A stretch of DNA of 64,000 bases from Vicinamibacterales bacterium. GTDB taxonomy: Bacteria; Acidobacteriota; Vicinamibacteria; Vicinamibacterales; JAMQPK01. Shown here in pieces: positions 1,201 to 62,357 of this stretch (position 1 is its first letter; each line of letters begins with the position of its first letter). The translations under genes and the position numbers were made by a program. Under the pieces are notes generated by a model, which was given only the letters and a program-made list of their open reading frames with translations, did not search any database and had not been told where the DNA came from. The DNA is taken from the NCBI GenBank assembly GCA_963850725.1, contig CAWKMQ010000018.1, positions 191,128 to 255,127 of the forward strand, in the 5' to 3' direction.

Positions 1201-1259
1201 GGTGGTTCGTTAGTCGTAAAGTTCGTAAAGTGTCGGGTTCGTCGGGTTCGTTGGGTTCG
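1201..1259. repeat. Word array, core GTTCG/GGGTTCG (about 7 units of 9-10 bp)
   Basis: Sequence ggtggttcgt/tagtcgtaaa/gttcgtaaa/gtgtcgggttc/gtcgggttc/gttgggttc lies directly after the stop at 1195-1197. It is the reverse-complement word of the CGAACCC array at 59166..59317. Confidence 0.7.
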
Positions 1260-1293
1260 GGGCGACGGCTGAAAAGGCCGTCGCCCTTTTTTT
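1260..1293 (+). terminator. Rho-independent terminator
   Basis: Perfect 10-bp GC-rich stem (1260-1269 with 1277-1286), 7-nt loop, then T7 (1287-1293). Confidence 0.85.
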
Positions 1294-1310
1294 GTAGTAC
1301 ACATTGATCC

Positions 1311-2924
1311 ATGAAAATCGGCAGACGTCAGATCGGGGTTCTCGTCGTCGTCGCGCTGTTGCTGGCGGCTCATCCTGCCGGTCAGTCGCCGACGCCACAG
1401 CACGCATGGCTCACGATCCTGTCGACGACGGATCTGCACGGCAACATCCTGCCGATCGACTACTACACGGGACAGCCGGACGCGCGCGGGCTGGCGAAGA
1501 TCGCGTCGCTCGTGCGGCAGATTCGCAAAGAGAATCCGTCGGGCACGCTGCTGCTGAACTCGGGCGACACCATACAGGGTGCGCCGCTCGCGTACGTCCA
1601 CAACACGCGCAACAACACGCCGCCCGATCCGATGATGCTCACGATGAGCGCCATCGGCGTCGACGCCATGGCCGTCGGCAATCACGAGTACAACTTCGGG
1701 TTGACGGTGCTCGAGAAGGCCCGGAAGGAAGCAGCCTTCCCGTGGCTGTCAGCGAATACCTACGACGTTGGCACCGGGCGCCCGCACTACGCGCCGTACA
1801 TCATGAAAGACCTGCAGGGCGTTCGCGTCGGCATCCTCGGCTTGACGACGCCCGGCGTTCCGTCCTGGGACGATCCGAAAAACTATGCCGGCCTCGAATT
1901 CCGGGAACCGCTGGCCGAGGCGAGGAAGTGGGTGCCGCATCTGAGGACGGAAGAGCGCGCCGACGTGGTCGTCATCGCCATGCACATGGGGCTCGAAGAG
2001 GATCTCCGAACGGGTGTTGTCTACCCGGGGCAGGTGCCGAATGAAAATCAGGCGCTGGCGATTGCCCGGCAGGTCGATGGCGTCGATCTCATCGTCATGG
2101 GCCATACGCATCGCGACGTCAGTGCGCTCGTCGTCAACGGCACGCTGATGACCCAGGCGAACGCCTGGGGGCGGCATCTGGCCCGGGCCGACATCCATCT
2201 CCAGCGAGACGCCAACCAGCGCTGGCGGGTCGCGACGAGGCAGGCCAATACGATTCCGGTGACCGACAGCACGCCGGCCGATCCCGAGATCGTCAAGCTG
2301 GCCGAGCCGTACGATCGCGAGACGCGGGCTTTCTTGAGCCGCGTGATCGGCCAGTCGGACGCCGAGCTCAGCCTCAACGACTTCCGCGATCGCGACACGG
2401 CCATCCTCGATCTCGTGCATCGCGTGCAGCTCGATGCCGGCAAGGCCGACGTCTCGATGGTGGCGCCCTTCAACGAGCAGGCGCGGGTTCCGAAAGGCGA
2501 CGTGCGCGTCCGCGACATCGCGGGCCTTTACGTGTACGACAACACGCTGGTGGTGCTCGATGTGTCCGGCCAGCAGTTGAAAGACGCGCTCGAGCATTCC
2601 GCGCGTTTCTTCGACGGCGGCATCCCCGCGTTCAACTACGACCAGGCCGAGGGGGTGACCTACGAGCTCGATAGCCGCAAGGCGGCCGGAGAACGGATCC
2701 AGAACCTGCGCTTCCAGGGCAAGCCGCTCGGTCCCACTCAGCGCCTCCGGCTGGCCACGAACAACTACCGCGTCAACGGGGGCGGCGGCTACGTGATGTA
2801 CCGCGGGGCCCCCGAGGTGTACCGATCGTCAAAGGAAATCCGGGAGCTGATTGTCGAATGGGTCGAACAGCACAAGGAGATCCCCTCACAGCCGACGAAC
2901 AACTGGCGAACAGTCTCACGCTGA
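1311..2924 (+). CDS. Bifunctional metallophosphatase / 5'-nucleotidase (UshA/CpdB-like), exported
   Basis: Intact 537-aa ORF with a signal peptide. Metallophosphoesterase motifs DLHG, GDTIQG, GNHEYNFG and GHTH are followed by a 5'-nucleotidase-type C-terminal domain. Confidence 0.9.
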   Translation: MKIGRRQIGVLVVVALLLAAHPAGQSPTPQHAWLTILSTTDLHGNILPIDYYTGQPDARGLAKIASLVRQIRKENPSGTLLLNSGDTIQGAPLAYVHNTRNNTPPDPMMLTMSAIGVDAMAVGNHEYNFGLTVLEKARKEAAFPWLSANTYDVGTGRPHYAPYIMKDLQGVRVGILGLTTPGVPSWDDPKNYAGLEFREPLAEARKWVPHLRTEERADVVVIAMHMGLEEDLRTGVVYPGQVPNENQALAIARQVDGVDLIVMGHTHRDVSALVVNGTLMTQANAWGRHLARADIHLQRDANQRWRVATRQANTIPVTDSTPADPEIVKLAEPYDRETRAFLSRVIGQSDAELSLNDFRDRDTAILDLVHRVQLDAGKADVSMVAPFNEQARVPKGDVRVRDIAGLYVYDNTLVVLDVSGQQLKDALEHSARFFDGGIPAFNYDQAEGVTYELDSRKAAGERIQNLRFQGKPLGPTQRLRLATNNYRVNGGGGYVMYRGAPEVYRSSKEIRELIVEWVEQHKEIPSQPTNNWRTVSR

Positions 2925-2934
2925 CGATCCACAC

Positions 2935-3035
2935 ACAGAAGGTCAGAAGATCAGGATCAAAGAGTCAAAGAGTCGTAGAGTCGCCCAGGTCGCCAGAGTC
3001 TTGGAGTCCTGACGAGTCCTGGAGTCCGACGAGTC
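2935..3035. repeat. Word arrays: AGAAGATCAG word, then a GAGTC array
   Basis: cagaaggtcagaagatcaggatcaaagag is followed by nine 8-10 bp units ending in GAGTC/AGGTC. There are 8 exact GAGTC in about 74 bp (2962..3035). It starts 11 nt after the stop at 2924. Confidence 0.8.
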
Positions 3036-3065
3036 AAGTGCTTTCAGAAGATGTACGCGTCGCAA

Positions 3066-3244
3066 CAGCAACAGTTGGGTTGGCGTTGCTGCGGCGCGAA
3101 GCCGTGCGCAGGCGGCCGATGTCTGACGCCTGACCGCGCGAGAAGCCTCAGGGAACCGAGCGAGGATGAATGGCGGAAGTCGGTGTTCGCTCGGCCCCGA
3201 AGCTTCGGATTCGCGCGGCAGCGACGCCAACCCAAGTGTTGCTG
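3066..3244. repeat. Long imperfect inverted repeat (39-nt arms) enclosing 101 nt with two internal hairpins; MITE-like element or structured RNA candidate
   Basis: Arm 3066-3104 pairs with 3206-3244: 35 Watson-Crick pairs, 1 G-U and 3 mismatches by hand pairing. Internal stems are 3109-3114/3127-3132 and 3156-3163/3187-3194. It lies between convergent genes. Confidence 0.6.
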
Positions 3245-3267
3245 GCGGAAATCGAACGATCGCGCCG

Positions 3268-4369
3268 CTATCTTTTGATCTTCTGATCTTCTGTAAGAGG
3301 GCCAAGCGTCGCGACGTACAGATCGAAATCATTACGCTCGTCCGTTGGACCGGTGGGATGGCGCGAGGAGAACGCGATCACCGAGCCGGTGGCGTCGATC
3401 GACGGACCGACGCTGGGCTCGATCCATGCCCCGTCGGGATCGCCGCTGACGCGCACCATCGTGCCGTCCTGCCGATCGTAGACGAACACATCCCACAGCA
3501 GATTGAAGTCCTCGCCCGCCACCAGATCGCTGGCTTCCGATTGAAAGACGACGAATCGGCCATTGGAGGAGATGGCAGGGTTGGCGCTCGCACCATTGGC
3601 CAGTCCACGTCTCACGCTTTTCGTAATGATCCGGACGGCGCCCGTGTGAAGGTCGGCGACATGGATGTGCGAAAGCCCGCCACCATCCGGGCCGACAAAC
3701 GCCAGCGCGCCCGCGTCGCCGCTGATCGACGGCGCCCAGCCGATGCCGATGCGTCGTGTGGTGCCCAGGAGCATATCGCGCACCAACACCTGTGAACTGG
3801 GACGGCGACGCGCGTCGAAGGGCGGTCTCGCCGAAAACGCGACGTACCGTCCGTCTGCGCTCGGACTCGGGCTGAAGCTCCACGTCAACGCTGTGTCGAC
3901 GCCCGGGCCCATCGATGATGCTGACGCGATGGGGGACACCGCCGCGCGGATCGATCGAAAAAATATCGTGCTCCGACGTAAAAAACACGACGCCGTTTCC
4001 GGCGACGGACGGCTGCCGTCCTTTGCCAAGGGTCCGATCGACATTGTCGACCGTGTCGCGCCACAGGATCGTGCCGTCGGCCTGAAAGACAAGGTAGCGG
4101 CCGTCTGCGCTGATGTCAGGATCCTGGCAGTCGATTGGTCCGCACGCCGGGCTCTCGAAGGTGACCTTCTGCCGAGCGCGATCGAGCACGTAGACATCAA
4201 TGGTGTGGTCGGTGTCGGCATCGGCAAGCGGCGCATGCGTGAGAAACGCGACGTAACGGCCGTCCGCGCTGACCGAAGCCGACGGGCGATCGAGCCCTGC
4301 CCGGTTGGCATCTTTCTGATCGATGGTGAGCATCCCGCTCATGATCAGCGCGGCGACCTGTGCCTTCAT
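3268..4369 (-). pseudogene. TolB-like / PD40 (WD40-like) beta-propeller repeat protein, one frame change as assembled
   Basis: The N-terminal ~155 codons are in track ORF 3332..4369 and the rest in ORF 3268..4311. The join is near 3900 at a GGGCCCGGG run. Repeated motifs SADGRYVAF, SADGRYLVF, SSNGRFVVF and ATGSVIAF are present. Confidence 0.75.
3271..3293. repeat. Word array, reverse complement of the AGAAGATCAG word
   Basis: tcttttgatcttctgatcttctg is inverted relative to 2935-2960. It encodes the last codons (..EDQKIKR) of the minus-strand gene ending at 3268. Confidence 0.7.
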
Positions 4370-8041: not shown

Positions 8042-9644
8042 GTGAAGCGAACGATTGCACTTGCATGCGTATTTGTGGCGGGGTTGGTGATGGTCCGGCT
8101 GAAGCCGGACACGACGTACGCGCAGGGCGCCCCGTACGATCTCATCATCCGCAACGGGCGGATTATCGACGGAACCGGGAGCCCGTGGTATCGCGGCGAT
8201 GTCGCCGTGCGCGGCGATACCATCGCGCAGGTCGCGTCGTCGATTTCCGAACCCGCGACACGCGTGATCGACGCGGGCGGCCAGATCGTCTCGCCCGGCT
8301 TCATCGACATTCACAACCACGGCCGCGAAAACATCTTCAAGGTTCCGACGGCCGACAACTACATCAGGCAGGGCGTCACGACCATCATCGAGGGACCCGA
8401 CGGCGGATCCGTCGTGCCGCTCGGTCCGTTTTTCGACAAGCTCGAGGCGCTGCAGAAGTCGATCAACATCGGTTCGTTCGTCGGCCAGGGCTCGGTGCGC
8501 GAGGCGGTCCTCGGACGCGCGAACCGCCGGCCGACGCCCGCCGAGCTCGACAAGATGCGCGGCCTGGTCGAGGAAGGGATGAAAGCCGGCGCCTTCGGCA
8601 TGAGCACGGGCCTGTTCTACGTCCCCGGCGCCTTCACGCCCATCGAGGAAGTGATCGAGCTCGCCAAGGTTGCGGCCAAATACGGCGGCATCCACATCTC
8701 TCACATGCGCGACGAGGCCTTCGGCGTCATCGACAGCGTGAAAGAGACCATCCGCATCGGCGAGGAAGGCGGCCTGCCGACGCAGATCACGCATCACAAG
8801 ATCGTGGGACCGGCCAACTACGGCAAGAGCGTCGAGACGCTGAAGCTGCTCGAGGCCGCGCGCGTCCGCGGCGTCGACACGACGAGCGATCAGTATCCGT
8901 ACACGGCGTCGAGCAACGCGTTTGTGGCGTCGATGGTCCCGCAGTGGGCGCAGGAAGGCGGGCGCGAGCAGATGCTCGCGCGCCTCAAGAATCCCTCGTC
9001 GCGCAAGGAAATCGCGGCCGAGACGGTCCGGATCATCAAGGAAGAGCGCGGCGGCGGCGATCCCAAGAACGTGTTCCTCGCGCATTGTGACTTCGATGCC
9101 GCGATGGCGGGCAAGAACCTCGCGGATGTGGCGAAGATGCGCGGCCTCGAGCCGACCATCGAGAACGGCGCCGAAGCCGCGCTGTGGATCGTCGAGCAGG
9201 GCAACTGCCAGGGCGTGTATCACGCCATGGCGGAGCAGGATCTCGAGCGCATCATGCGGCATCCGGCTACGATGGTGGCGTCCGACGGCTGGGTGCAGGT
9301 GTTCAACGAGGGCGTGCCGCATCCGAGAAGCTACGGCACGTTTGCGCGCGTGCTTGGCGTCTACGTGCGCGAGCGCAACGTGATCACGCTCGAAGACGCG
9401 ATCAGGAGGATGACGTCGTTTCCGGCGCAGCGCATCCGGGTGAACGATCGCGGTATCTTGCGTCCGGGCATGAAGGCCGACATCGTCGTCTTCGATCCCG
9501 GCGCGCGTGCGCGACATGGCGACGTTCGAAAAGCCGCATCAATATGCGGAAGGGTTTTCGTCGGTGATCGTCAACGGACAGCTCGTGTTCGACGGAAAAG
9601 CCATGACGTCGGCGCGACCGGGAAGGTCGTTCGCGAGACACTGA
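8042..9644 (+). pseudogene. N-acyl-D-amino-acid deacylase (D-aminoacylase) family amidohydrolase, one frame change near the 3' end
   Basis: GTG start after the RBS GGAGGAG. Motifs YDLIIRNGRIIDGTG and SPGFIDIHNHG. After ...DIVVFDP an indel near 9505 moves the conserved tail (VRDMATFEKPHQYAEGFSSVIVNGQLVFDGK..) to another frame. The reconstructed stop is 9642-9644, whereas the track ORF runs on to 9712. Confidence 0.85.
8094..8120. repeat. REP-like palindromic element, single hairpin copy inside the predicted N-terminus of the D-aminoacylase
   Basis: gtccggctgaagccggac + acgacgtacg. The 7-bp stem GTCCGGC/GCCGGAC has a 4-nt loop. In frame it reads ..VRLKPDTTY.. The same element occurs at 26124, 45971 and 54978. 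Confidence 0.8.
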
Positions 9645-11883: not shown

Positions 11884-11893
11884 GGCGGATTGA

Positions 11894-11958
11894 ACAGGAG
11901 ACTAGGAGATCAGGAGAATCTTTTCGAAAAGAATTCTCTGAGTCTCCTGATCTCTTGT
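11894..11958. repeat. Word-array hairpin (GGAGAYYAGG word), possible terminator
   Basis: acaggagactaggagatcaggagaatcttttc | gaaaagaattctctgagtctcctgatctcttgt. The central palindrome tcttttcgaaaaga is perfect. About 33 positions pair with a few mismatches. It sits 11 nt after the stop at 11883. The same word occurs at 62205..62333. Confidence 0.7.
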
Positions 11959-13008: not shown

Positions 13009-13979
13009 CCGGTGGTCTTCTTGCGTTGCTCATTCTCACGTTCCTCGTGCTCGTCATCATCGCGAAGACGGCGATCGTCGTGCCGCAGCAGAGCGCGTAC
13101 GTCGTCGAGCGGCTGGGACGTTTCACGGCGATTCTCAACGCCGGCTTCCACGTGCTGCTGCCGTTCGTCGACGTGATCCGCTACCGCCATTCGCTGAAGG
13201 AAATCGCCGTCGACATCCCGGCGCAGGTCTGCATCACGCGCGACAACGTGCAGGTCGGCGTCGACGGGGTCCTCTACCTGAAGGTGCTGAACCCGGAGCG
13301 CGCGTCATACGGCATCTCGGACTACATGTTCGCGATCAGCCAGCTCGCGCAGACGACGCTGCGCAGCGAGGTCGGCAAGATCGACCTCGACCGCACGTTC
13401 GAGGAGCGCACGAACATCAACACGCAGGTGGTCAGCGAGCTCGACAAGGCATCCGAAGCGTGGGGCGTGAAAGTGCTTCGCTACGAAATCAAGAACATCA
13501 CGCCGCCGGCGGATATCCTCGCGGCGATGGAGAAGCAGATGCGCGCCGAGCGGGAGAAGCGCGCGGTGATTCTCACCTCCGAAGGCACGCGCGACGCGGC
13601 GATCAATACGGCGGAGGGCGTGAAGCAGGAAGTGATCAAGCAGTCGGAGGCCCGCAGGCTGCAGCAGATTAACGAGGCCGAAGGGCAGGCCGCGGCGATT
13701 ACGTCTGTCGCCACCGCGACGGCCGCGGGCATCCGCAGCGTGGCCGAGGCGATCAGGCTTCCCGGAGGTCAGGAAGCCGTGCAGCTTCGTGTGGCCGAGC
13801 AGTACATCGGCCAGTTCGGCGAGATTGCCAAAAAGGGCAACACCATCGTGCTGCCGGCGAACGTCGCGGACGTCGGATCGATGATCGCGCTCGCCATGAA
13901 AATGACGGGACGGAGTCCGGAGAGTCCTAGAGTCCTAAGAGTCGGCTGGGAGTCGGGAGAGTCTGAGAGTCAGAGATGA
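13005..13979 (+). CDS. SPFH/Band 7 (stomatin-like) protein
   Basis: Intact 324-aa ORF with an N-terminal TM helix. SPFH core VVPQQSAYVVERLGRF...LRYEIKNITPP, then a coiled-coil A/E/Q-rich region. The last ~20 codons (..SPESPRVLRVGWESGESESQR) are encoded by the GAGTC array. Confidence 0.9.
   Translation: MTGGLLALLILTFLVLVIIAKTAIVVPQQSAYVVERLGRFTAILNAGFHVLLPFVDVIRYRHSLKEIAVDIPAQVCITRDNVQVGVDGVLYLKVLNPERASYGISDYMFAISQLAQTTLRSEVGKIDLDRTFEERTNINTQVVSELDKASEAWGVKVLRYEIKNITPPADILAAMEKQMRAEREKRAVILTSEGTRDAAINTAEGVKQEVIKQSEARRLQQINEAEGQAAAITSVATATAAGIRSVAEAIRLPGGQEAVQLRVAEQYIGQFGEIAKKGNTIVLPANVADVGSMIALAMKMTGRSPESPRVLRVGWESGESESQR
13912..13971. repeat. GAGTC word array (7 exact GAGTC in about 60 bp)
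   Basis: cggagtc/cggagagtc/ctagagtc/ctaagagtc/ggctgggagtc/gggagagtc/tgagagtc. It lies inside the 3' end of the SPFH ORF and abuts the ATG of the M28 gene (13976). Confidence 0.85.
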
Positions 13980-17932: not shown

Positions 17933-17971
17933 ATTGGCAGATTCGCAGATTGGCAGATTGGGAGATTACGG
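17933..17971. repeat. Word array, core CAGATT(G/C)
   Basis: attggcagattcgcagattggcagattgggagattacgg fills the 46-nt spacer between the stop at 17932 and the start at 17979. The same word occurs at 58973..59045. Confidence 0.75.
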
Positions 17972-18926: not shown

Positions 18927-18988
18927 CGCACGAAGACACGGAACCACGAAGGCACGAAGAGACGCACACGAACGAGCACGAAGGTCGA
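18927..18988. repeat. Word array, core CACGAAG (5 units of 9-13 bp)
   Basis: cgcacgaagacacggaaccacgaaggcacgaagagacgcacacgaacgagcacgaaggtcgag starts directly after the stop at 18924-18926. Confidence 0.7.
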
Positions 18989-19035: not shown

Positions 19036-20951
19036 ATGAACGTTCGAACCATGCTTCCGCTCGCCCTGGCGATTGCGGTTCGATAGCCGTGACACCGCAC
19101 ATCACCACGCTCCGCGGCCAGAGCGGGCCCAGGCTCTACACGACCTGGAGCCAGCCGGGCGGCAGCATCGAAGGGGCGCAGTACTCCGCGCTCAAGCAGA
19201 TCGACAAGACGAACGTTCATCAGCTCGAGCTGCAATGGTTCTTTCCCGCGCCTGGTCCCATCGGCCGGTTCGCCTTCAGCCCGCTCGTCGTCGACAACGT
19301 GATGTACGTCGTCGGCAAGGACAATGCGGTCTTCGCCCTCGATGCCGTGACGGGGAAGGAAATCTGGCGGTTCGATACCGAAGGGACGCCGACCAACCGC
19401 GGCTTCAACTACTGGGAAAACACCGATCGTTCCGATCGCCGCCTCATCTTCGCGTCGCGCAGCTACCTTCAGGAGATCGATGCGCGAACCGGGAAGCCGA
19501 TCGCGAGCTTTGGCGCCAACGGCCTCGTGAACCTGCGCGAGGGCCTCGGCCGCACCCCGCTGCCCACGGGTGGCGCGCAATCGGGATCGCCCGGTCAGGT
19601 CTGGGGCAATCTGCTCGTGCTCGGTTCGGCTCCCGGAGAGGGCTACAACTCACCGCCCGGCGACATCCGGGCGTTCGACGTGCAGACCGGCAAGCTGGTG
19701 TGGACGTTCCACACGATTCCCCGGCCCGGCGAGTTCGGCTACGACACGTGGCCGCCCGACGCGTGGAAGACGGCCGGCGGCGCCAACACCTGGGCCGAGT
19801 TCGCGATCGACGAGAAACGCGGCATCGGGTATTTCCCAACGGGATCGCCGACGTTCGATCTGTGGGGCGGCGATCGAAAAGGCAACAACCTCTTCGGCAA
19901 CACGCTCCTCGCCCTCGATCTGCGCACGGGCAAGCGTCTCTGGCACTATCAAGCGCTTCATCACGATCTGTGGGACTACGATCTGGTGACCGGACCGAAG
20001 CTGCTGACGGTGAAGCTGAACGGGAAGCCGGTGGACATCGTCGCGCAGGCGACGAAGTACGGCTTGCTGTTCGTGTTCGATCGCGTCACCGGCAAGCCGA
20101 TCTGGCCCATCGAAGAACGGCCCGTCCCGCAGAGCGACGTGCCCGGCGAGCAGTCGTCGCCGACCCAGCCCTTTCCGACCCGACCCGCGCCGTTCGCACG
20201 GCTGAAGTTCACCGAGGCGGATGTGAACCCGTACCTCGACGCCGACGAGCGTCAGCGGATTCTCGAGATCGTGCGCACGTCGCGCAATGAAGGGATCTTC
20301 ACGCCGCTCAGCATCACGCGGCGTCAGATTTCAGTGCCCGGCGAGCTCGGCGGCGCCAACTGGGGCGGGGCTGCCGCGGATCCCGAAACCGGGATGCTGT
20401 ACGTGCGCTCGGCCGATCAGCCCGCCCTGCACGAGCCGATGACGCTCGTGGAAGACAGCGAAGCCGTCAGCCGGATGGCGCCGCAGCCACGCTACACGGG
20501 GCGTCTCGGATCGATGTTCTTCGCGTCGAACGGCCTGAACGCGATGAGCCCGCCCTGGGCGCAGATTACCGCGTACGATTTGAACAGCGGCGCGATCAAG
20601 TGGCAGGCGCCGTTCGGCGTCGTGCCGTCGCTCGCCGCGAAAGGCATCACGAACACCGGGAACAACTATCGCGCGCACAGGAACGGACCTGTCGTCACGG
20701 CGGGCGGATTGATTTTCATCGCGCACTTCGCCGATCGCACCGTTCGCGCCTACGACAAAGACAACGGGAAAATTCTCTGGGAGAAGAAGATGCCCCCCAA
20801 CTTCGCGGGCATCCCCTCCGTGTATGAGGTCAACGGACGGCAGTTCGTCGCCTTCTACGGCAGCAGCTTCGAGAGCCCGGCCGACGGCAACATCGCATGG
20901 GAAGGCGGGGAGCCCGGGTCGCAAGGGTATTACGTGTTTGCACTGGCGTAG
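19036..20951 (+). pseudogene. PQQ-dependent dehydrogenase (glucose/quinate/shikimate-type 8-bladed propeller), soluble periplasmic; one indel after the signal peptide
   Basis: The body is intact in track ORF 19002..20951 (..YSALKQIDKTNVHQLELQWFF..VVDNVMYVVGKDNAVFALDAVTGKEIWRF..). The signal peptide MNVRTMLPLALAIAV starts at ATG 19036 in frame 1, and the join is near 19080. Confidence 0.85.
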
Positions 20952-21062
20952 AAAGTAGAAAGTAGAAAAGTAGAAAGTGAAAAGTAGGAAAGTAAGCGAA
21001 GCAGGCGCCCGATGACTTTCAAACTTCCTTTTTACTTTTCCCTTTTCACTTTCTACTTTCTC
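20949..21062. repeat. Word-array hairpin (GTAGAAAG word) spanning the stop of one gene and the start of the next
   Basis: The 5' arm is tagaaagtagaaagtagaaaagtagaaagtgaaaagtaggaaagtaag. The loop contains ATG 21012. The 3' arm acttcctttttacttttcccttttcactttctactttctc includes a 17-nt exact complement of the 5' arm. The same word occurs at 55497..55613. Confidence 0.8.
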
Positions 21063-25566: not shown

Positions 25567-26081
25567 TCGAGCGGCACTACCTCGACGATTGCCTTGTCCA
25601 GCTGCGCAAGCTCAAGACGCAGGTGGACAAGGCCATCGCGCAGATCGACGATCGGCAGTTCTTCGCCGCGCTCGACCCCGAGGCCAACAGCATCGCGCTC
25701 CTGATGAAGCACATCTCGGGCAATATCCGTTCGCGCTCGACCGACTTCCTGACGACCGACGGCGAAAAGCCCAATCGGAATCGAGACGGCGAATTCGAGC
25801 TCGGCGGCGAGGACACGCGCGCGGCCATCCAGTCGCGATGGGAGGAGAGCTGGCGGCTGTTGTTCGAGACGATTGGCTCGCTTCAGCCCGGGGATCTCGA
25901 GAAGACCGTCACGATTCGGGGAGAAGCCCACACGGTCGTGCAGGCGTTGAACCGCCAGGTGTCGCACTATTCAGCCCACGTCGGCCAGATCGTGCTGCTC
26001 GCCAAGCACTTCGCGGGGGCGCGCTGGCAGACGCTGAGCATACCGCGGAGGAAAGCACCGGTTCAGGGTTCCGGGTGCTAG
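25563..26081 (+). CDS. DUF1572 / DinB-like family protein
   Basis: TTG start overlaps the ferritin stop. Sequence ..LMKHISGNIRSRSTDFLTTDGEKPNRNRDGEF..VSHYSAHVGQIVLLAKHF. The last codons (..VQGSGC) run into the GGTTCYRG word array. Confidence 0.6.
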   Translation: MIERHYLDDCLVQLRKLKTQVDKAIAQIDDRQFFAALDPEANSIALLMKHISGNIRSRSTDFLTTDGEKPNRNRDGEFELGGEDTRAAIQSRWEESWRLLFETIGSLQPGDLEKTVTIRGEAHTVVQALNRQVSHYSAHVGQIVLLAKHFAGARWQTLSIPRRKAPVQGSGC

Positions 26082-26236
26082 GTTCTAGGTTCCGGTTCTG
26101 AACCTGCTAGCCTGGGCAGATTCACGTATCTGGTTCAGGCGGACCGCGTGAACGTCCGGCTAAAGCCGGACACTACGTATCCACGGCACCGAACCTGGAA
26201 CCGGAACCCAGAACCTAGCACCCAGAACCCAGAACC
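26061..26236. repeat. Word-array long hairpin (GGTTCYRG word) with a REP element in its loop
   Basis: Segment 26066-26098 is complementary to 26198-26230 (33 nt, 2 mismatches by hand alignment). The 99-nt loop carries the REP copy at 26124..26179. The hairpin fills the gap between the convergent stops at 26081 and 26240. Confidence 0.8.
26124..26179. repeat. REP-like element, doublet with a degenerate first hairpin
   Basis: acgtatctggttcaggcggaccgcgtgaacgtccggctaaagccggacactacgta aligns to the reverse complement of the doublet at 45971..46030. The track ORF 26148.. (MNVRLKPDTTY..) is its translation artefact. Confidence 0.8.
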
Positions 26237-36257: not shown

Positions 36258-36277
36258 GCAGATGGCAGATGGCAAAG
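36258..36277. repeat. Short word array, core ATGGCAG
   Basis: gcagatggcagatggcaaag. The same word occurs at 49833..49870. Confidence 0.5.
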
Positions 36278-39573: not shown

Positions 39574-39598
39574 AAACAGCGTCGAGAAGGAGGAGCGT

Positions 39599-48998: not shown

Positions 48999-49050
48999 TA
49001 GAATCTGGAATCTAAAACTAAAATCTGAAATGAAACTGAAGACTGAATGG
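48999..49050. repeat. Word array, cores GAATCT/AAAACT/GAAACT
   Basis: tagaatctggaatctaaaactaaaatctgaaatgaaactgaagactgaatgg. It is related to the array at 61514..61570. Confidence 0.7.
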
Positions 49051-49832: not shown

Positions 49833-49870
49833 GATGGCAAATGGCAGATGGCAGAGCGTGCTACTGCCAT
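49833..49870. repeat. ATGGCAG word array forming a short hairpin after the stop
   Basis: gatggcaaatggcagatggcagagcgtgctactgccat. The 7-bp stem ATGGCAG (49848-49854) / CTGCCAT (49864-49870) lies 16 nt after the stop at 49817. Confidence 0.6.
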
Positions 49871-55496: not shown

Positions 55497-55613
55497 GTAA
55501 AAAGTAGAAAGTAGAAAGTAAGGAATAAGGAAGCTAATGTTGATGCGACTGAGGTTGCCGTCTCGCTATTCCTTTTTACTTTTCACTTTTCACTTTCCAC
55601 TTTTTCCTTTCCA
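55497..55613. repeat. Word-array hairpin (GTAGAAAG word) spanning a stop, the next start codon and a signal-peptide region
   Basis: The 5' arm is gtaaaaagtagaaagtagaaagtaaggaataaggaag. The loop contains ATG 55537. The 3' arm is tcctttttacttttcacttttcactttccactttttcctttccac. The architecture matches 20949..21062. Confidence 0.8.
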
Positions 55614-57188
55614 CTGTTCCTCCTCCGCCCAGCCCCCATTCTCCGTCGTCGAAGCCACCATTGCGGACATGCAGGCCGCGATGCAGCAGAAACGCATTAC
55701 CTCGCGCGGCATCGTCCAGCAGTACCTCGACCGCATCGCGAAGTACGAGGATCGCCTGAACGCCATCATCACGCTCAATCCCCGCGCGCTCGAAGAGGCC
55801 GACCGGCTCGATCGAGAGCGGGCGCAGGGCCGGATCCGCGGCCCGCTGCACGGCATTCCGATCGCGCTCAAGGACAACATTCACACGACCGACATGCCCA
55901 CGACCGGCGGCGCGCTCGCGTTCAAGGGGTTCGTGCCGCCGTACGAGGCCACGCTGACGAAGCAGCTTCGCGAGGCGGGCGCGATCATCATCGCGAAGAC
56001 GAACATGACCGAGCTGGCCAACTGGATTGCCGCCGGCATGCCGGGCAACTACAACGGCCTTGCCGGCTACGGCTTCAATCCCTACGATCCACGGCCCGAT
56101 CCGCGCGAGGGGACCAGACGACGGCAGGCCCGCGCTGACGGCCGGCCGGATCGAGCTCGGGCGCCGGCACGGCGGCCAATCTGTGGGCGGCGAATGTCGG
56201 CACCGAAACGTCCGGATCGATTCTCTCGCCCGCCAAACCAGACGATGATTGTGGGGATCAAGCCGACGGTGGGGCGGATCAGCCGGTACGGAATCATCCC
56301 GATTACCGCGGATCAGGACACCGCCGGGCCGATGGCGCGAACGGTGGCGGATGCGGCGATGCTGCTTCGGCGTGCTCGAAGGTGCGACGCCGGACCCGAA
56401 CGATGCGGCGACGCGGACGTGTCCACGAACGCCCAACGGTGACTACACGCGTCATCTGAACGCACGCGGACTGGAGGGCGCCCGTATCGGCATTCCGCGC
56501 GCGACGTTCGTCGATGAGGCCAGGCAAGGCGACGTCGTGCGCGAGGCCATCGCCATTCTCCGAAAGGCCGGGGCGGTCGATCGTCGATCCGGCCGACCTG
56601 CCCGAGCAACCGCCGCCGGTCTGCCGCGACGATACGGGCATCAGGGGCAAGGACGTCAATTGCTCGATCGTGTTCAAGTACGGCATGAAGCGCGACTTCA
56701 ACGCCTGGCTGGCCACGCTGGGTGCCGGCGCTCCGGTGAAAACGCTCGCGCAGCTGCGCGAGTGGAACCTCGCCCATCGCGCCGAAGGCGCCATCAAGTA
56801 CGGCCAGATCCAGCTCGACAACTCGGATGCGGTGGATCTCGAGGCCGATCGCGCGCGCTATCTTGCCGATCGGCAGAAGGATGTGCGCGTGACCGGCACG
56901 GATGGCATCGACGCGGTCTTCAAGCGCGAGCGGCTCGACGCGCTGCTGTTTGTCGGTTCGAGCGGATCGGCGTTTGCCGCCAAGCCCGGCTATCCGACCG
57001 TGATTGTGCCGTTCGCCTTCGTGCCGAACGCCCCCACGCCGCCGTTCCCGCCGGGCTTCGATGCCAAGCCGTCACCGCTCGGCATCAGTTTTACGGGTAC
57101 CGCGTGCAGCGAGCCGCGCTTGATCGAACTGGCCTATGCGTTCGAGCAGGCCACGAAGCGAAGAGTGGCGCCGGCAGAGTTTCCCTAG
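55537..57188 (+). pseudogene. Amidase (amidase-signature family), exported; at least 4 frame changes
   Basis: Sequence ..ATIADMQAAMQQKRITSRGIVQQYLDRIAKYE..LHGIPIALKDNIHT.. The signature GGSSSGAGTAANLWAANVGTETSGSILSPA is readable only in a third frame near 56150-56240. The C-terminal part is in ORF 56514..57188. Confidence 0.8.
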
Positions 57189-57197
57189 AGTCGTCTC

Positions 57198-57265
57198 AAC
57201 GCAAAGACGCGAAGACGCCAAGAATTCTGCTTTAATAAGATTCCTTGTCTTGGCGCCTTGGCGTT
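57198..57265. repeat. Imperfect word-array hairpin (AAGACGC / CCAAG words)
   Basis: cgcaaagacgcgaagacgccaagaattc ... gattccttgtcttggcgccttggcgtt lies 10 nt after the amidase stop. Confidence 0.5.
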
Positions 57266-57296
57266 AGATATCGAAACCCCGAGGACTGAGAGCCAC

Positions 57297-58194: not shown

Positions 58195-58443
58195 TCAGGC
58201 GATCTTTCTGATCAATGCGCCGGCGCGCGTGGCGAGTGGACGCGCCTGAAAACGCAGCACCGGGCGGCTCGTGGTTTCAACCGTTTCAACCGTCCAGCCG
58301 GGCGACTCGTGACCGCACGCGACACACTCCAGATACACTCTGTTCTTGTCGAAGTGCATGTATTCTTCGTGTCCCCGTAACGCACAATACAATCGGTTCA
58401 AAGACTCCATAGCATGTTCCACCCTATAAGACGCAGAACCCAC
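58195..58443 (-). CDS. Small hypothetical protein with Cys/His cluster (possible zinc-binding)
   Basis: 82-aa ORF in a locally lower-GC stretch. Motif C-x3-H...C-x2-C-x-H (LYCALRGHEEYMHFDKNRVYLECVACGHESPGW). No recognisable family. Confidence 0.35.
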   Translation of the reverse strand: MGSASYRVEHAMESLNRLYCALRGHEEYMHFDKNRVYLECVACGHESPGWTVETVETTSRPVLRFQARPLATRAGALIRKIA

Positions 58444-58488
58444 CTTCTGTGGTTCCCTTTGTGAGGATTAACGCTGGGGCGCTTCAGA

Positions 58489-58971: not shown

Positions 58972-58972
58972 A

Positions 58973-59045
58973 GAATTCGCAGATTCGCAGATTCGTAGAT
59001 TGGAAGATTGATTGCCGGATTGCGGATTGGCGATTGCCCGGTTTG
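58973..59045. repeat. Word array, core (C/G)AGATT / GGATTG (at least 8 units)
   Basis: gaattcgcagattcgcagattcgtagattggaagattgattgccggattgcggattggcgattgcccgg starts 2 nt after the stop at 58971. Confidence 0.8.
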
Positions 59046-59059
59046 GAGTGCTGTTCTTA

Positions 59060-59105
59060 CAGAAGACCAGAAGATCAGAAGAGGCCTTGATCTTCTGACC
59101 TTCTG
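59060..59105. repeat. Word-array hairpin (AGAAGATCAG word)
   Basis: cagaagaccagaagatc (59060-59076) pairs with gatcttctgaccttctg (59089-59105) at 15 of 17 positions, with a 12-nt loop. Confidence 0.75.
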
Positions 59106-59165
59106 ATCTTTTGTTTCATAGTCAGCATCCGGCGCGTTGGCGAACCGTGCGATTTTCTGAGCAGA

Positions 59166-59317
59166 CACGAAGACGACGAACCGCCGAACCCACGAACCCG
59201 CCGAACCCAACGAACCCGACGAACCCAGGAACCCGACGAACCCACGAACCCCACGAACCCGACGAACCCGTTAACGAACTTAACGAACTTGACGAACCCA
59301 CGAACCTGACTAACCCG
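59166..59317. repeat. Word array, consensus GAACCCRAC (about 15 units of 8-9 bp)
   Basis: ..cgaaccgccgaacccacgaacccgccgaacccaacgaacccgacgaacccaggaacccgacgaacccacgaaccccacgaacccgacgaacccgttaacgaacttaacgaacttgacgaacccacgaacctgactaaccc. It ends 19 nt before ATG 59336. Confidence 0.85.
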
Positions 59318-59335
59318 TGACGAGGTCGTGCTAGG

Positions 59336-60274
59336 ATGCGGGCCTTTATGAAGCCTCTCATGCTTACGTTGCTCATCGTGGTGGCGGCCGGGACGCTCGC
59401 GGCGAGACAGGCCATTCCGCAGGCGACCGGGGCCAACGTCGCGCGCGATCTGCGCGGGGCGATCGACATTCACGTGCATTCCTATCCCGACAGAGTGCCC
59501 CGCGTGCTCGACGGCCTCGAGGCGGCGCGCCAGGCCAGGGACAAAGGGCTGCGCGCGATCGTGCTCAAAAGTCACTACGACCCCACGGCCGGGCTCGCGT
59601 GGATGGCGCGCAAGGCGGTGCCCGGCATCGAGGTGTTCGGCGGCATCGACCTGAACCTGCCGGTCGGCGGCATGAACGTCCACGCCGTCGAACACATGGT
59701 GCAGACCACCGGCGGCTGGGGACGTATGGTGTGGATGTCGACGTTCGACGCGGAAAACCAGGTGCGATCGAGGAAAGCCAGCCGGCCGTTCGTGCGCGTC
59801 TCCGACAACGGCGCGCTGCTGCCGGAAACGAAGGCCGTCATCGCCGCCATCGCGAAGCACGGGCTCGTGCTCGCCAGCGGGCACGTGTCGGCTGCCGAAG
59901 CGCTGATGATGTTCGAGGAAGGCCGGCGCGTGGGTGTGCGGGCCATGGTCGCGACGCACGGCATGTCCACGCCGACGCTGCTCAGCGTCGAGCAGGCAAA
60001 GCGGGCCAACGCGCTCGGCGTGCTCGTCGAGTTCACCGGCGACACCATGCAGGGGCCAAACGCGCGTGCGCGGGTCGATCGCATTGCGGCCGACATCAGG
60101 AGCATCGGGGTCGAACATGCGATCGTGTCGTCCGATCTCGGAAAGGGAGGCGCCGAAATGCCCGTCGAGGGATTCGCGACCCTCCTCGAAGCGCTGCGCC
60201 AGAAGGGCTTCACCGATCGCGAGCTGGATCAGCTGGTAAAGGACAACCCCGCCCGCCTGCTGGGTCTGAAGTAG
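59336..60274 (+). CDS. Exported metal-dependent hydrolase-like TIM-barrel protein (amidohydrolase-related, DUF6282-like)
   Basis: Intact 312-aa ORF with a signal peptide and an HxH motif (IDIHVHS) near the N-terminus. The antisense ORF 59075..60475 is a shadow. Confidence 0.55.
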   Translation: MRAFMKPLMLTLLIVVAAGTLAARQAIPQATGANVARDLRGAIDIHVHSYPDRVPRVLDGLEAARQARDKGLRAIVLKSHYDPTAGLAWMARKAVPGIEVFGGIDLNLPVGGMNVHAVEHMVQTTGGWGRMVWMSTFDAENQVRSRKASRPFVRVSDNGALLPETKAVIAAIAKHGLVLASGHVSAAEALMMFEEGRRVGVRAMVATHGMSTPTLLSVEQAKRANALGVLVEFTGDTMQGPNARARVDRIAADIRSIGVEHAIVSSDLGKGGAEMPVEGFATLLEALRQKGFTDRELDQLVKDNPARLLGLK

Positions 60275-60284: not shown

Positions 60285-61522
60285 ATGAGACGCGTGGCAT
60301 CCGCCCTCGCCGCCGTCGTGCTGGTGGCTGCCATCGCGATGCACGCGCAGTCCCCGTCATCGTCTGCCAACCTTCCGTTGTTCCTGTACGCCGCGGTGGG
60401 TCCCGAGCTCTCGACGTATGCGGTGCACGCCGCGGATGGAGTCGCTGCGAAAAACCTCGAGCGCGACGTTGCCATTTGCCGTGCAGTACGTGTGGCCGCA
60501 CCCCTCGACGAAATTTCTGTATGTGGCGTGGAGCAACGGCATGCAGGGCGATCGCCACGGCATAAACGCGTACCGTATCGACCCCGTCACGGGCGCGCTG
60601 TCGCCGCACGGTGCGCCGATCGAAATCCGGCATCGGCCCGTGCACCTGACGCTCGATGCGAACGCGACCCACGTCCTCGTGGCCTACAACAATCCCAGCA
60701 GCTTGAGCGTGCACGCGCTGAACGCGGACGCCACGCTGGGACGCCGAGGTGAAGCAGCCCGCGCCGCTCGACCAGGGCATCTACGCGCACCAGATCCGTG
60801 TGCATCCGTCGAACACGATGGTCGTGCTGGTGACGCGCGGCAATGGCCCCACGGCAACACGGCCCGAAGACCCCGGCGCACTGAAGGTCTACGGCTACAA
60901 GAACGGGGTCCTGACCAATCGGCAGTCGATCGCGCCCAACGGCGGCTTCGGCTTTCAGTCGCGCCATCTGGATTTCCATCCAACACTGCCGCTCATGTAT
61001 CTCAACCTCGAGCGCCAGAACCAGCTTCAGGTCTACCGCGTCAAGGGCGACGCCATCGATCCCCAGGCCGTGTTCACCCGCAACACGCTCGATCACCCGG
61101 AGACGAGCAAGCCGGCGCAGATGACAGGTGCCATCCACATCCATCCGAACGGCCGGGTCGTCTACCTGAGCAATCGTGCGAGCGGTACTCAGGTCGTCGA
61201 CGGGAAGACGGTCTGGGAGGGGGGCGAGAACACCATCGGCGTCTATGCGATCGATCAGAAGACAGGCGAGCCCACGCGCCTTCAGAACATCGACAGCGGT
61301 GGGATGCACGCGCGCACGTTTGCGCTCGACGCGGACGCCGGCCTGCTCGTGGCGGCCAATCAGAATGCGGTGACCAAAGCGGACGGTACGCGCGTGTCCG
61401 CGTCGCTGGCCGTCTTTCGCATCGGGAGCACCGGGACGCTTACGTTTCTGCGGAAATACGACGTCGAGACGGGGCGGGGCGACACGCTCATGTGGACGGG
61501 GTTGGTGCGAATCCGAAACTAA
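60285..61522 (+). pseudogene. Lactonase-type 7-bladed beta-propeller protein (6-phosphogluconolactonase-like), exported; two frame changes
   Basis: Signal peptide in ORF 60285 (frame 3), then ORF 60418 (frame 1: ..PHPSTKFLYVAWSNG..INAYRIDPVTGAL..), then ORF 60749..61522 (frame 2: ..IHIHPNGRVVYLSNRASG..GVYAIDQKTGEPT..). Confidence 0.6.
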
Positions 61523-61570
61523 AATCTAGAAACTAGAAACTAGAACTGAAAACTGACAACTGAAAACTGG
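61514..61570. repeat. Word array, cores GAAACT / AGAAACT / GAAAACT
   Basis: gaaactaaaatctagaaactagaaactagaactgaaaactgacaactgaaaactgg spans the stop at 61520-61522 and ends 10 nt before ATG 61580. Confidence 0.75.
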
Positions 61571-61579
61571 AGTGCCGAG

Positions 61580-62194
61580 ATGCGCGTGATGGTCGCTGTG
61601 CTGATGCTGTTTGCTGTTACGATGCCCGCTGTGGCACAGGATCGACTGCCGCCCATTCCGGCGGACAAGCAGACGCCCGAGCAGCAGAAGGCATCCGAGG
61701 CGTTTCGTGCGAACCGGAAACAGGATGTGTTCGGGCCGTTCGTGCCGCTCCATCGCAGCCCCGAAGTCATGCTGCGCGCGATGGCGATGGGCGATTTCCT
61801 TCGCTACCGCACGGTGTTTCCCACCAGGCTGAACGAGCTCATCATCCTGATTACCGCCAGGCATTTCACGCAGCAGTACGAATGGTACGTGCACCAGCCG
61901 ATCGCGTTGAAGGAAGGCCTGGACCGCGGCGTCGTCGACGCCATCGCCGACGGCCGGCGGCCATCGGGCATGGCGCCCGACGAGGAGTTGATCTACGAGT
62001 TCTGCACCGAGCTTCTGCGGAACAACAGCGTGAGCGACGCCACATATGCGCGGGCCGTGCAGCGCTTCGGCGAACAGGGGATGATCGAGATGGTGGGCGT
62101 CGTGGGGTACTACACGTTCCAGTCGATGGTCCTGAACACCGCCCGCACGCCGGTCCCGGGCGGCGTCCTCGGTCTCAAACCTTTTCCCAGGTGA
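61580..62194 (+). CDS. Carboxymuconolactone decarboxylase (CMD/AhpD-like) family protein, exported
   Basis: Intact 204-aa ORF with a signal peptide. Sequence ..LNELIILITARHFTQQYEWYVHQPIALKEGL..MIEMVGVVGYYTF. Confidence 0.7.
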   Translation: MRVMVAVLMLFAVTMPAVAQDRLPPIPADKQTPEQQKASEAFRANRKQDVFGPFVPLHRSPEVMLRAMAMGDFLRYRTVFPTRLNELIILITARHFTQQYEWYVHQPIALKEGLDRGVVDAIADGRRPSGMAPDEELIYEFCTELLRNNSVSDATYARAVQRFGEQGMIEMVGVVGYYTFQSMVLNTARTPVPGGVLGLKPFPR

Positions 62195-62204
62195 ATACCC
62201 TTAA

Positions 62205-62268
62205 CAAGAGATTAGGAGACTAAGAGAATTTCTTTTCAAAGAATTCTCCTGATCTCTAGTCTCCTGTT
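62205..62268. repeat. Word-array hairpin (GGAGAYYAGG word)
   Basis: caagagattaggagactaagagaatttcttttc | aaagaattctcctgatctctagtctcctgtt. It is related to 11894..11958 and lies 11 nt after the stop at 62194. Confidence 0.7.
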
Positions 62269-62283
62269 TCCGTTTAAACAAAA

Positions 62284-62328
62284 GATCAGAAGATCAGAAG
62301 GAAATTTTTTCCTCCTAATCTCCTGATC
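62284..62328. repeat. Hairpin pairing an AGAAGATCAG arm with a GGAGATCAGG-type arm
   Basis: gatcagaagatcagaaggaaa (62284-62304) pairs with tttcctcctaatctcctgatc (62308-62328) at 18 of 21 positions, with a 3-nt loop. Confidence 0.7.
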
Positions 62329-62357
62329 TCCTGTTCGAATTTTGTTTTGAACGTTTT

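Follow-up and report, generated by a model that had tools for sequence, protein, structure and literature searches.

Heptamer and octamer tandem arrays at gene boundaries in a Vicinamibacterales genome

Introduction

What are the short, word-like tandem repeats that fill many spacers of a soil acidobacterial genome, and what keeps them there? The window analyzed here is the whole 64,000-nt stretch at positions 191,128–255,127 of contig CAWKMQ010000018.1 (assembly GCA_963850725.1), part of a metagenome-assembled genome (MAG) of a soil acidobacterium of the order Vicinamibacterales (Acidobacteriota). An earlier sequence-only reading of this DNA described arrays of 8–10-nt units in its spacers and proposed that they belong to no described class of elements. 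Membership tests place the arrays among the long simple sequence repeats (LSSRs), a class already described. A known class is thus joined by a new lineage, and no new mechanism is demonstrated; a literature search returned no paper linking Vicinamibacteria to such repeats. The arrays are probably slippage-driven LSSRs that fill unconstrained DNA near the 3′ ends of genes, some of them having been co-opted as RNA hairpins.

Bacterial intergenic repeats with units of 5–11 nt were first noticed in cyanobacteria and then surveyed across prokaryotes. The Vicinamibacterales are a soil lineage dominated by uncultured members and represented by many MAGs at graded divergence. Since arrays are kept along this series while their words change, and since they show polarity and co-option, the lineage is a good system in which to separate mutational drive from selection. 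Array-bearing spacers also have practical consequences. They break nucleotide alignments, may be unstable in cloning and assembly, and mislead callers of open reading frames (ORFs), because N- and C-termini encoded by arrays resemble non-coding DNA or vice versa.

Abundance and composition of the arrays

Arrays were called with Tandem Repeats Finder (TRF) and checked by direct reading of the sequence. Markov gene callers recovered just 63–71% of the window as coding; its gene map was therefore curated from ORFs, codon statistics and Pfam, and gene calls in the loci of relatives are approximate. The curated map leaves 46 non-coding segments with 5,048 bases. GC content is 62–66% throughout the window and ~64% overall.

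Arrays with periods of 6–11 nt cover 17.8% of the non-coding bases and 1.1% of the coding bases. The array-covered length in the 46 segments, 875 nt, is 37 times the expectation from 100 dinucleotide-preserving shuffles (23.7 ± 20.8 nt, maximum 86), and 15 segments carry an array compared to 1.2 in the shuffles. All arrays reported from the sequence alone were found again within a few bases of their positions, and they share one architecture built from differing words. Some of their described properties require revision. Units are mostly 7 nt (12 non-coding TRF rows) or 8 nt (15 rows) long, with few rows at 9–10, and not 8–10 nt. The array-bearing spacers number 16–18, not at least 20, and one array, GCAGATG ×2.4 at 36258..36277 (+), which overlaps a candidate start codon, is marginal with its 2.4 copies. 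Coding TRF rows have periods of 9, 12 and 15 (mostly 9 and 12). Autocorrelation peaks at lags 8, 7 and 14–16 are found in spacers only, and genes show just the 3-nt period. Array-bearing spacers are less GC-rich (52%) than the other spacers (61%) and the window as a whole; the original observation was that arrays are less GC-rich than the genes.

The vocabulary consists of 133 canonical words among 233 arrays. Words were said to recur tens of kilobases apart, and they do: 12 pairs of sites more than 400 nt apart share a word (at most one mismatch, any rotation or strand), against 2.06 ± 1.35 expected when letters are permuted within each word, and exact sharing is found in 5 pairs against 0.39. 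Part of this recurrence stems from a dispersed hairpin family, P1, described below.

Position and strand polarity

Syntenic loci were found via the DUF6282 protein encoded at 59336–60274. They come from 19 genomes, mostly Vicinamibacterales MAGs, in which this protein is 98% to ~48% identical in amino acid sequence, and gene order over 49–64 kb of the window is conserved in 13 of the 19 (blastn). Loci L001–L013 and L019 belong to related genomes, L018 is gammaproteobacterial, and L141, from plasmid alpha of Nostoc PCC 7120, serves as a control. Counts of position and polarity pool the window with 18 loci of 21 kb, about 440 kb in total.

Arrays gather where genes end. In the pooled set, the 40 convergent spacers contain 57 arrays, the 180 co-directional ones 132 and the 39 divergent ones 4. 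In the curated window, arrays occupy 4 of 6 convergent, 11 of 33 co-directional and 1 of 7 divergent spacers, the last being an unpaired A-rich AATCTGA/AAACTGA array at 48999..49050 (+) that extends into the region where the gene at 49047 starts. The 79 unpaired arrays in co-directional spacers begin at a median distance of 4 nt from the stop codon (quartiles −2.5 and 35). Of 153 stop-adjacent arrays, 84 start no more than 15 nt from the stop and 31 overlap the gene end, with the stop codon often forming part of the first unit (e.g. at 20949, 55494 and 61520).

The unpaired arrays of the window illustrate this placement. At 1201..1259 (+), two copies of TCGTAAAGT followed by three of GTCGGGTTC start 3 nt past the stop at 1197. 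CAGATTSG ×4.4 at 17933..17971 (+) begins on the first base after the stop at 17932, fills a 25-nt operon spacer and has no stable fold (z = 0.18); CACGAAGR ×4 at 18927..18988 (+) likewise begins on the first base after the stop at 18926. The GAAACTA/NAACTGA array at 61514..61570 (+) includes the TAA stop at 61520–61522 and fills a 57-nt operon spacer up to the GGAG ahead of the start at 61580. Upstream of the DUF6282 gene, arrays of CAGATTCG and then GGATTGC at 58973..59045 (+) start 1 nt past the stop at 58971. They were previously taken for a hairpin, and their fold is no more stable than that of shuffles (z = −0.9). Further along the same spacer, the ACGAACCC array at 59166..59317 (+), with ~16 units of periods 8/9, ends 18 nt before the start at 59336; it is rich in C, poor in G and free of structure (−7.3 kcal/mol for 141 nt).

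The description of the arrays as intergenic does not strictly hold for several of them. Two pyrimidine-rich arms, at 21020–21062 and 55566–55619, encode signal peptides, and two arrays lie in 3′ tails of ORFs. One of these, a GAGTCC/GAGTCG array of period 8–9 at 13912..13976 (+), occupies the open 3′ tail of ORF 13005–13979 and reaches the ATG at 13976. The other, ATCTTCTG ×3 at 3271..3293 (+), overlaps the last codons of a minus-strand ORF ending at 3268.

Read along the sense strand of the gene upstream, arrays consist of 37% A, 29% G, 18% T and 17% C. Their mean purine content is 0.66; 68 arrays exceed 0.6 and 6 are below 0.4. Two general purposes were considered for such sequences and rejected. 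Closing of reading frames is not a general property, because 34 of 106 stop-adjacent arrays close all three frames and 40 leave every frame open. Rho-utilization sites do not fit either: they are rich in C and poor in G, and most arrays have the reverse composition; the CGAACCC array alone would qualify, and this is speculation.

Array hairpins and the P1 family

Many arrays were thought to be paired into hairpins beside stop codons. Indeed, for about a quarter of them (44 of 180) an inverted copy matching at 17 or more of 20 positions lies no further than 260 nt away; 109 of 180 lack a partner. Paired arrays form long hairpins with folding energies of −22 to −51 kcal/mol (z = −2.4 to −5.8 relative to shuffles) and AU-rich stems of 25–45 bp that contain one mismatch per 7–8 bp. 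Unpaired arrays have almost no structure (e.g. −4.5 kcal/mol for a stretch of 66 nt). Of 19 hairpins scored for arm order, 16 begin with the purine-rich arm and 3 with the pyrimidine-rich one.

Window examples include the GACGCRAA array hairpin at 57198..57265 (+), located 9 nt past the stop at 57188 (−26.4 kcal/mol, z = −3.6), and two hairpins in convergent spacers. One of the latter (26061..26236, +) consists of a GGTTCYRG array at 26061–26104 and its inverted partner at 26191–26236. The other (49833..49870, +) lies 15 nt after a stop and consists of GATGGCA ×3.3 and a short inverted partner CTGCCAT (z = −2.6). The purine-rich arrays CAGAAGAT, TCAAAGAG and GAGTCCTG at 2935..3035 (+), 10 nt past the stop at 2924, form the left arm of a split inverted pair: 2935–2963 is matched by the array at 3271..3293, and a ~215-nt element resembling a miniature inverted-repeat transposable element (MITE) lies between them.

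The P1 family is a ~66-nt near-perfect palindrome, AACAG(RAGAYYAG)3-GAATTC-TTTTCGAAAA-GAATTC-(…)3CTGTT. Searching with a profile located four copies in the window, and L019, L001 and L008 have copies at non-orthologous sites. The copy at 11893..11958 (+), AACAG(GAGAYYAG)3 GAAT-TTTTCGAAAA-ATTC (…)3 CTTGT, folds with −34.1 kcal/mol (z = −4.75). The copy at 59059..59114 (+), a P1-related hairpin with CAGAAGAY units (−28.9 kcal/mol, z = −4.3), has TTTTGTTTC after it. The remaining two, neither of which is assigned to a strand, are neighbors. The palindrome at 62203..62267 lies in a convergent spacer 10 nt past the stop at 62194 and shows compensatory changes in its orthologues. The hairpin at 62277..62334 pairs an arm of AAGATCAG with an arm of CTCCTRATCTCC; with TTTTGTTT coming next on the minus strand, it is terminator-like for the minus-strand gene ending near 62358. 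In an alignment of nine P1 sequences, 89.6% of stem cells are paired, compared to 45–51% when the partners are slid. Seven pairs have changed on both sides, and 14 cells carry double changes; shuffles give 8.3 ± 2.2, and just 2 of 500 have as many as 14. Either selection or templated correction inside the palindromes thus keeps P1 paired.

The array hairpins are not intrinsic terminators of the usual design (a GC-rich stem of ~5–14 bp, a loop of 3–8 nt and a U-tract). A U-tract follows only 59059–59114 and, on the minus strand, 62277–62334, and a consensus terminator scan gave no information, with 12 sites where 11.9 were expected. A canonical terminator, GGGCGACGGC-TGAAAAG-GCCGTCGCCC followed by T7, is found at 1260–1293, directly 3′ of the GGGTTCG array, so the organism uses ordinary GC-rich terminators beside array hairpins.

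Dispersal of P1 raises the possibility, somewhat doubtful on balance, that paired arrays are mobile hairpin modules, akin to MITEs or to repetitive extragenic palindromes (REPs), that would spread to new sites at gene 3′ ends, so that words would recur by copying and not by independent slippage. The non-orthologous copies of P1 and the four in the window, with their conserved ends AACAG…CTGTT and conserved center TTTTCGAAAA, are what such modules would leave behind; the hairpin at 59059–59114 is gained or lost as a block between close genomes; and the lineage carries other dispersed repeats, a REP-like 26-mer and the 215-nt MITE-like element. No target-site duplications or transposase are seen, however, and Pfam scans of the 64-kb window and the 21-kb loci turned up no REP-associated tyrosine transposase (RAYT, IS200/IS605-like). 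The two arms vary independently in copy number, with 3 versus 6 units in L008 and 4 versus 7 at 55497–55619. Nor do mobile modules explain the unpaired arrays or the word drift at orthologous sites. They are plausible for the hairpin subset only, where they are compatible with slippage-driven arrays as the main explanation.

The palindromes also bear on a role at the level of DNA, in which non-B structures or chromosome organization would be selected (cruciforms, flexibility, barriers to replication or transcription). Palindromes with a perfect center (TTTTCGAAAA) could extrude cruciforms, polypurine/polypyrimidine asymmetry is present, palindrome centers and loops take insertions of other elements, and a DNA-level role of long simple sequence repeats has been raised (PMC4692102, PMC4060949). 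Such a role is nonetheless improbable here. A period of 7–8 nt is out of phase with the helical repeat, the words have no structural motif in common, those capable of forming G-quadruplexes are rare (3 arrays), and polarity goes with the direction in which genes are transcribed, an indication of RNA or of transcription itself.

Other repeats associated with the hairpins

The ~215-nt element at 3036–3250 is bounded by terminal inverted repeats, GTTGGGTTGGCGTTGCTGC … GCAGCGACGCCAACCCAAG, around a conserved GC-rich core. Its insertion sites lie between the arms of array hairpins, and in L002 it occupies a spacer where L001 and L008 are without it. Further copies are found at L002:7863–8060, L002:19358–19465, L002:20141–20312, L001:19694–19870 and L003:18646–18821. 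It has no match in Rfam and resembles a MITE, or else a mobile structured RNA with hairpin centers as its targets. In L005, a ~170-nt insert (L005:12940–13140) occupies the center of the P1 hairpin in the spacer orthologous to 62195–62357.

A REP-like 26-mer, GTCCGGCT(G/A)AAGCCGGAC+ACTACGTA, has an 8-bp stem, a tetraloop and a conserved tail. Its window copies are at 8093–8118, 26154–26179, 45971–45996 (−), 46005–46030 and 54978–54999, and many more are present in L001–L005, L008, L012 and L019. The 26-mer resides in spacers, sometimes within the loop of an array hairpin (26154–26179), and is distinct from the tandem arrays.

Arrays that encode signal peptides

Two hairpins share the word GTAGAAA and enclose a start codon. 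At 20949..21062 (+), a GTAGAAA ×6.4 arm, whose first unit contains the TAG stop of a PQQ dehydrogenase gene, is followed by a CTTTTCA arm; this hairpin has a folding energy of −50.8 kcal/mol (z = −5.8). At 55497..55619 (+), a GTARAAA arm begins on the first base after the stop at 55496 and is followed by a CTTTTCA ×6.9 arm. The ATG of the downstream gene lies in the loop in both cases (21012 and 55537), and the second loop also holds a Shine–Dalgarno-like AAGGAAG. Both CTTTTCA arms are translated in frame. The arm at 21020–21062 encodes the signal-peptide core MTFKLPFYFSLFTFYFLCAPAASA↓QS of a PQQ_2 protein, and the arm at 55566–55619 encodes the signal-peptide core MLMRLRLPSRYSFLLFTFHFPLFPFHCSSSAQ of an amidase. 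In eight orthologues of the amidase, the frame is kept through to the conserved PFSV(V/I)EATIADMQ despite arrays that differ in word and length. As the purine arm begins at the upstream stop, the hairpin might act as a coupling structure opened by the ribosome.

Other GTAGAAA arrays are unpaired, lie just upstream of starts or follow ordinary terminator stems, so the word has no single context, and the idea that it always pairs with a signal peptide is false. GTAGAAA is not a universal attractor word either. Three consecutive copies, (GTAGAAA)3, occur in more than 120 metagenome contigs of 23–71% GC, but in viral contigs they have 17 hits, against 37, 23 and 12 for three letter-permuted controls, which reflects the general base rate of heptamer arrays.

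Turnover among relatives

Arrays occupy the same spacers in 13 related MAGs, where both word and copy number vary; the comparison of orthologous spacers, proposed as a check, thus finds differences of both kinds. Array density (periods 7, 8, 10 and 11) is 15–35 nt/kb in the window and close Vicinamibacterales, 4–12 nt/kb in more distant Acidobacteriota and 1.0 nt/kb in the gammaproteobacterial L018, which has a similar GC content. In 50 kb of Sinorhizobium pSymB (63% GC) the density is 4.6 nt/kb, made up of short, GC-rich, two-copy rows. The arrays are a lineage-wide trait.

Presence of arrays in relatives also bears on the possibility that they are artefacts of assembly or polishing. The closest relatives are long-read (MFD) MAGs, and several genes of the window are frameshifted, with Pfam domains running on in a second frame: a PD40 propeller at 3268–4369 (−), OMP_b-brl_4 outer-membrane proteins at 39170–42461 (+) and 46043–48504 (−), a methyltransferase at 53118–53781 (+), the amidase at 55537–57188 (+) and a lactonase at 60285–61522 (+). 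These genes probably carry 1-nt indel errors of long-read assembly, or else are pseudogenes, and several apparent spacers are spurious because of them. Long-read errors, though, are typically homopolymer indels and not ordered 7–8-nt arrays with complementary partners. Homologous arrays and hairpins are present in independent samples, and short-read MEGAHIT/metaSPAdes MAGs (L010, L011, L012 and L013) have arrays as well, which leaves an artefactual origin next to no credibility.

Blastn alignments to relatives whose genes are 93–95% identical break exactly at spacers. Spacers are bimodal: they are either invariant in length and array-free, as at 50577–50609 and 58431–58488 in all genomes, or hypervariable and nearly always array-bearing. 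A few of the apparently invariant spacers are really coding DNA, for example 56443–56513 inside the frameshifted amidase gene.

One hypervariable spacer, 61523–61579, has an array in 11 of 12 orthologues. Its length in the five closest genomes is 57, 29, 85, 54 and 74 nt, the difference of ±28 nt relative to L001 and L002 corresponding to four 7-nt units. The window and its close relatives use GAAACTA/NAACTGA at this site, L004 uses GTAGAAA, L005 uses GTCGCAAG/GCGCAAG, L007 has a CGTTCAT hairpin, L009 has GTCGAAA and CCAGAGC, and L006 and L019 have GGGATTG. CTAGAAA, GTAGAAA and GTCGAAA form a series with one mismatch at each step. Words one substitution apart fit an array that persists while its unit drifts by homogenization.

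Arrays can also be lost without replacement. Spacer 57189–57296 has other words in relatives and is reduced to 6 nt in L007, and only 13–41 nt of 58972–59335 are left in L005, L001 and L008, so arrays are dispensable at these two sites. Within 58972–59335, the hairpin at 59059–59114 is present in L002 and absent from L001, L003 and L008; the array at 59166–59317 is shorter in L002 and absent from L001, L003, L008 and L005. Spacers of L004 and L006 orthologous to 58972–59335 contain extra whole genes (~1 kb) flanked by arrays (L004:5958–7224); genes may be gained or lost preferentially in array spacers.

This turnover makes it unlikely that arrays are clustered sites for RNA- or DNA-binding regulators (CsrA-, Csp-, S1- or Hfq-like proteins or a transcription factor), each word family being a regulon. 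A limited, recurrent vocabulary placed next to stops and starts and polarized on the sense strand would suit such regulators, as would GGA-containing words such as GGAGATTAGGAGA. A post-transcriptional role of TAACTGA repeats has been speculated upon (PMC4679880), and heptamer repeats affect reporters in Nostoc (bioRxiv 10.1101/2022.06.06.494920). Orthologous sites at 61523–61579, however, contain unrelated words (GAAACTA, GTAGAAA, GTCGCAAG, CGTTCAT, CCAGAGC, GGGATTG), some spacers can do without an array, the 233 arrays comprise 133 canonical words, and functions of the neighboring genes are unrelated.

Other features of the window

The genes of the window are those of ordinary soil-bacterium metabolism, as assigned by Pfam. 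They encode a 5′-nucleotidase, penicillin amidase, amidohydrolase, M28 peptidase, ThuA, PQQ dehydrogenase, TonB-type outer-membrane proteins, a HerA-like ATPase, MFS transporter, amidase, OsmC, GNATs and a lactonase. Rfam (gathering threshold) and tRNA scans of the window gave no matches. An apparent 313-nt spacer contains a small conserved minus-strand ORF at 58195–58443, MESLNRLYCALRGHEEYMHFDKNRVYLECVACGHESPGWTVE…, with zinc-ribbon-like Cys/His spacing; this region has a constant, alignable length in L001–L008 and no arrays. A patch of lower GC content (59% at 28–30 kb) at 26621–30402 has minus-strand ORFs with GC at third codon positions of ~0.5. They encode an SPFH/Band-7 + HTH_17 fusion, a treble-clef zinc-finger protein, an unannotated ORF product and the HerA-like ATPase (HerA_C, E = 3e-212). 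This cluster may be horizontally acquired or defense-related.

Proposed origin and function

The existence of the arrays, their position, polarity, turnover and foldability, covariation in one hairpin family and in-frame coding by two arms are observed here; slippage as their generator and every function at the RNA level are inferred, with the 28-nt length steps at 61523–61579 as indirect evidence for slippage. In the explanation favored here, strand slippage at replication or repair would create 7–8-nt tandem repeats and alter their length, and homogenization within an array would let its word drift over time. Purifying selection would confine arrays to tolerant DNA, namely the stretch from a stop codon to the next signal and the linkers of operons, as well as tolerant coding ends such as C-terminal tails and signal-peptide cores; divergent, promoter-only spacers would be kept clear. 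The arrays would be transcribed as 3′ untranslated regions or intercistronic RNA, and selection or a mutation bias linked to transcription would set the purine polarity of the sense strand. Unpaired arrays may simply be structure-free linkers. Where an inverted pyrimidine-rich copy arises downstream, a long AU-rich hairpin with periodic mismatches would form and be maintained by compensatory change as RNA (or DNA). Such hairpins are probably 3′-end structures of transcripts, serving in termination or as exonuclease barriers, and those that bracket a start codon are probably sensitive to ribosomes.

Several observations weigh against this explanation as it stands. A limited vocabulary recurs at non-orthologous sites, for which slippage alone is insufficient, and a dispersed hairpin family, homogenization between arrays or some other bias must be invoked in addition. 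Selection, and not pure neutrality, is suggested by the strong purine polarity and by arrays that persist in 11–12 of 12–13 orthologues at two spacers. Most array hairpins do not have the GC-rich stem and U-tract of canonical terminators, and the two that enclose a start codon cannot be efficient terminators. Indels of unit size are not cleanly resolved in low-gap-cost blastn pairwise alignments, which are ambiguous. Finally, the context counts pool orthologous spacers, which are not independent, and rely on approximate gene calls in the loci of relatives.

A bolder reading, which we consider rather unlikely, makes the arrays a clade-wide, self-renewing RNA architecture. Purine-rich arrays anchored at stops and their pyrimidine-rich inverted partners would be modules of adjustable length, opened by the terminating ribosome, providing translational coupling where they bracket the next start and transcript 3′ ends elsewhere, and produced by a lineage-specific activity that also homogenizes the vocabulary. 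If so, the arrays would not be junk, and their generator would be a peculiarity of repair or polymerase or a process of array-to-array conversion.

Comparison with known systems

That REPs, CRISPRs, MITEs and canonical terminators are poor descriptions of the arrays was proposed at the outset. Membership tests bear this out for CRISPRs, MITEs and canonical terminators; as for REPs, unpaired arrays do not fit, and the P1 hairpins might. REPs and bacterial interspersed mosaic elements (BIMEs) resemble the arrays, as terminators do, in their association with gene 3′ ends, transcribed spacers and hairpins and in a plausible role in stabilization or termination of transcripts, and P1 is dispersed in many copies. 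The arms of array hairpins differ in consisting of tandem 7–8-nt units with periodic mismatches in AU-rich stems of 25–45 bp, usually with no U-tract. Unpaired arrays are not dispersed palindromes of 20–40 nt at all; P1 is dispersed and has conserved ends and a conserved center but is ~66 nt long and tandem-built. CRISPRs can be rejected because the units are 7–9 nt long and contiguous, as opposed to repeats of 23–50 nt with unique spacers. MITEs can be rejected because array length varies by units and no target-site duplication is seen.

The short tandemly repeated repetitive (STRR) sequences of Mazel et al. (1990) are reportedly heptamer arrays (CCCCAGT, TTGGTCA, CAACAGT) of heterocystous cyanobacteria. 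They and the heptamer repeats of Nostoc, Anabaena and Calothrix are like the arrays in having several word families per genome, intergenic locations, inverted pairs and, in some cases, positions beside starts. They differ in phylum, in words and in the AT-rich genomes that carry them, and no report was found of stop anchoring, purine polarity or signal-peptide-coding arrays among them. Because architecture is shared and words and taxon are not, the arrays work like STRR sequences without being members of that family. The Nostoc control L141 has an inverted pair of its own, CAATTCG ×4.7 at 45681–45713 and AATTGCG ×3.7 at 45831–45856, so array-built hairpins are not unique to Vicinamibacterales. 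Nostoc has several heptamer words, each present tens of times in intergenic regions (PMC2408588).

In Xanthomonas, GGGAATC repeats are enriched in non-coding DNA, lie on the sense strand no more than 50 bp past stops, are depleted between divergent ORFs and vary between relatives at the same spacer, and inverted copies can form stem-loops (Rehm et al. 2015, PMC4692102). The arrays have these features in common with the GGGAATC/GGGGA(C/T)T repeats of Xanthomonas and Nostoc. There, a single G-rich word dominates; it could form G-quadruplexes and tends to occur in four units. Here the words are many, mostly A/G-rich and without G-tracts. GGGATT-type arrays number 3 in about 440 kb, with none in the window, and no window array has at least four G-tracts of at least three G at a 7-nt period.

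TAACTGA repeats occur in marine Beggiatoaceae, some Cyanobacteria and Bacteroidetes (MacGregor 2015, PMC4679880). They too are intergenic heptamers, in 2–6 or more copies just before starts, with no predicted fold, and in forward orientation they close all reading frames. The array at 61543–61570 is made of NAACTGA units (GAACTGA, AAACTGA, CAACTGA), which are also found in L001–L003 and L008; the exact unit TAACTGA is not used. A single word located mostly by starts sets these repeats apart from the many words located mostly by stops in Vicinamibacterales.

The closest fit is provided by LSSRs. As described by Mrazek, Guo and Shah (2007) and relayed in PMC4679880 and PMC4692102, they have 5–11-nt units, predominantly heptamers, lie in intergenic DNA of large GC-rich genomes and are proposed to be generated by polymerase slippage. 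As far as these accounts go, the arrays resemble LSSRs in head-to-tail 5–11-nt units that extend further than chance allows (875 nt against 23.7 ± 20.8 nt), in units that are not multiples of 3 in non-coding DNA (periods 7/8 there, 9/12 in coding DNA), in copy numbers that differ between related genomes at one locus, as orthologous spacers do here, and in a sporadic, lineage-specific distribution among large GC-rich genomes of free-living bacteria. Octamers equal heptamers in frequency in the Vicinamibacterales, an order not among the lineages that these accounts report, and ~18% of the non-coding DNA is covered. The suggestion that no described class has such properties therefore does not stand, since LSSRs together with the heptamer repeats of Xanthomonas, Nostoc and Beggiatoaceae share most of them.

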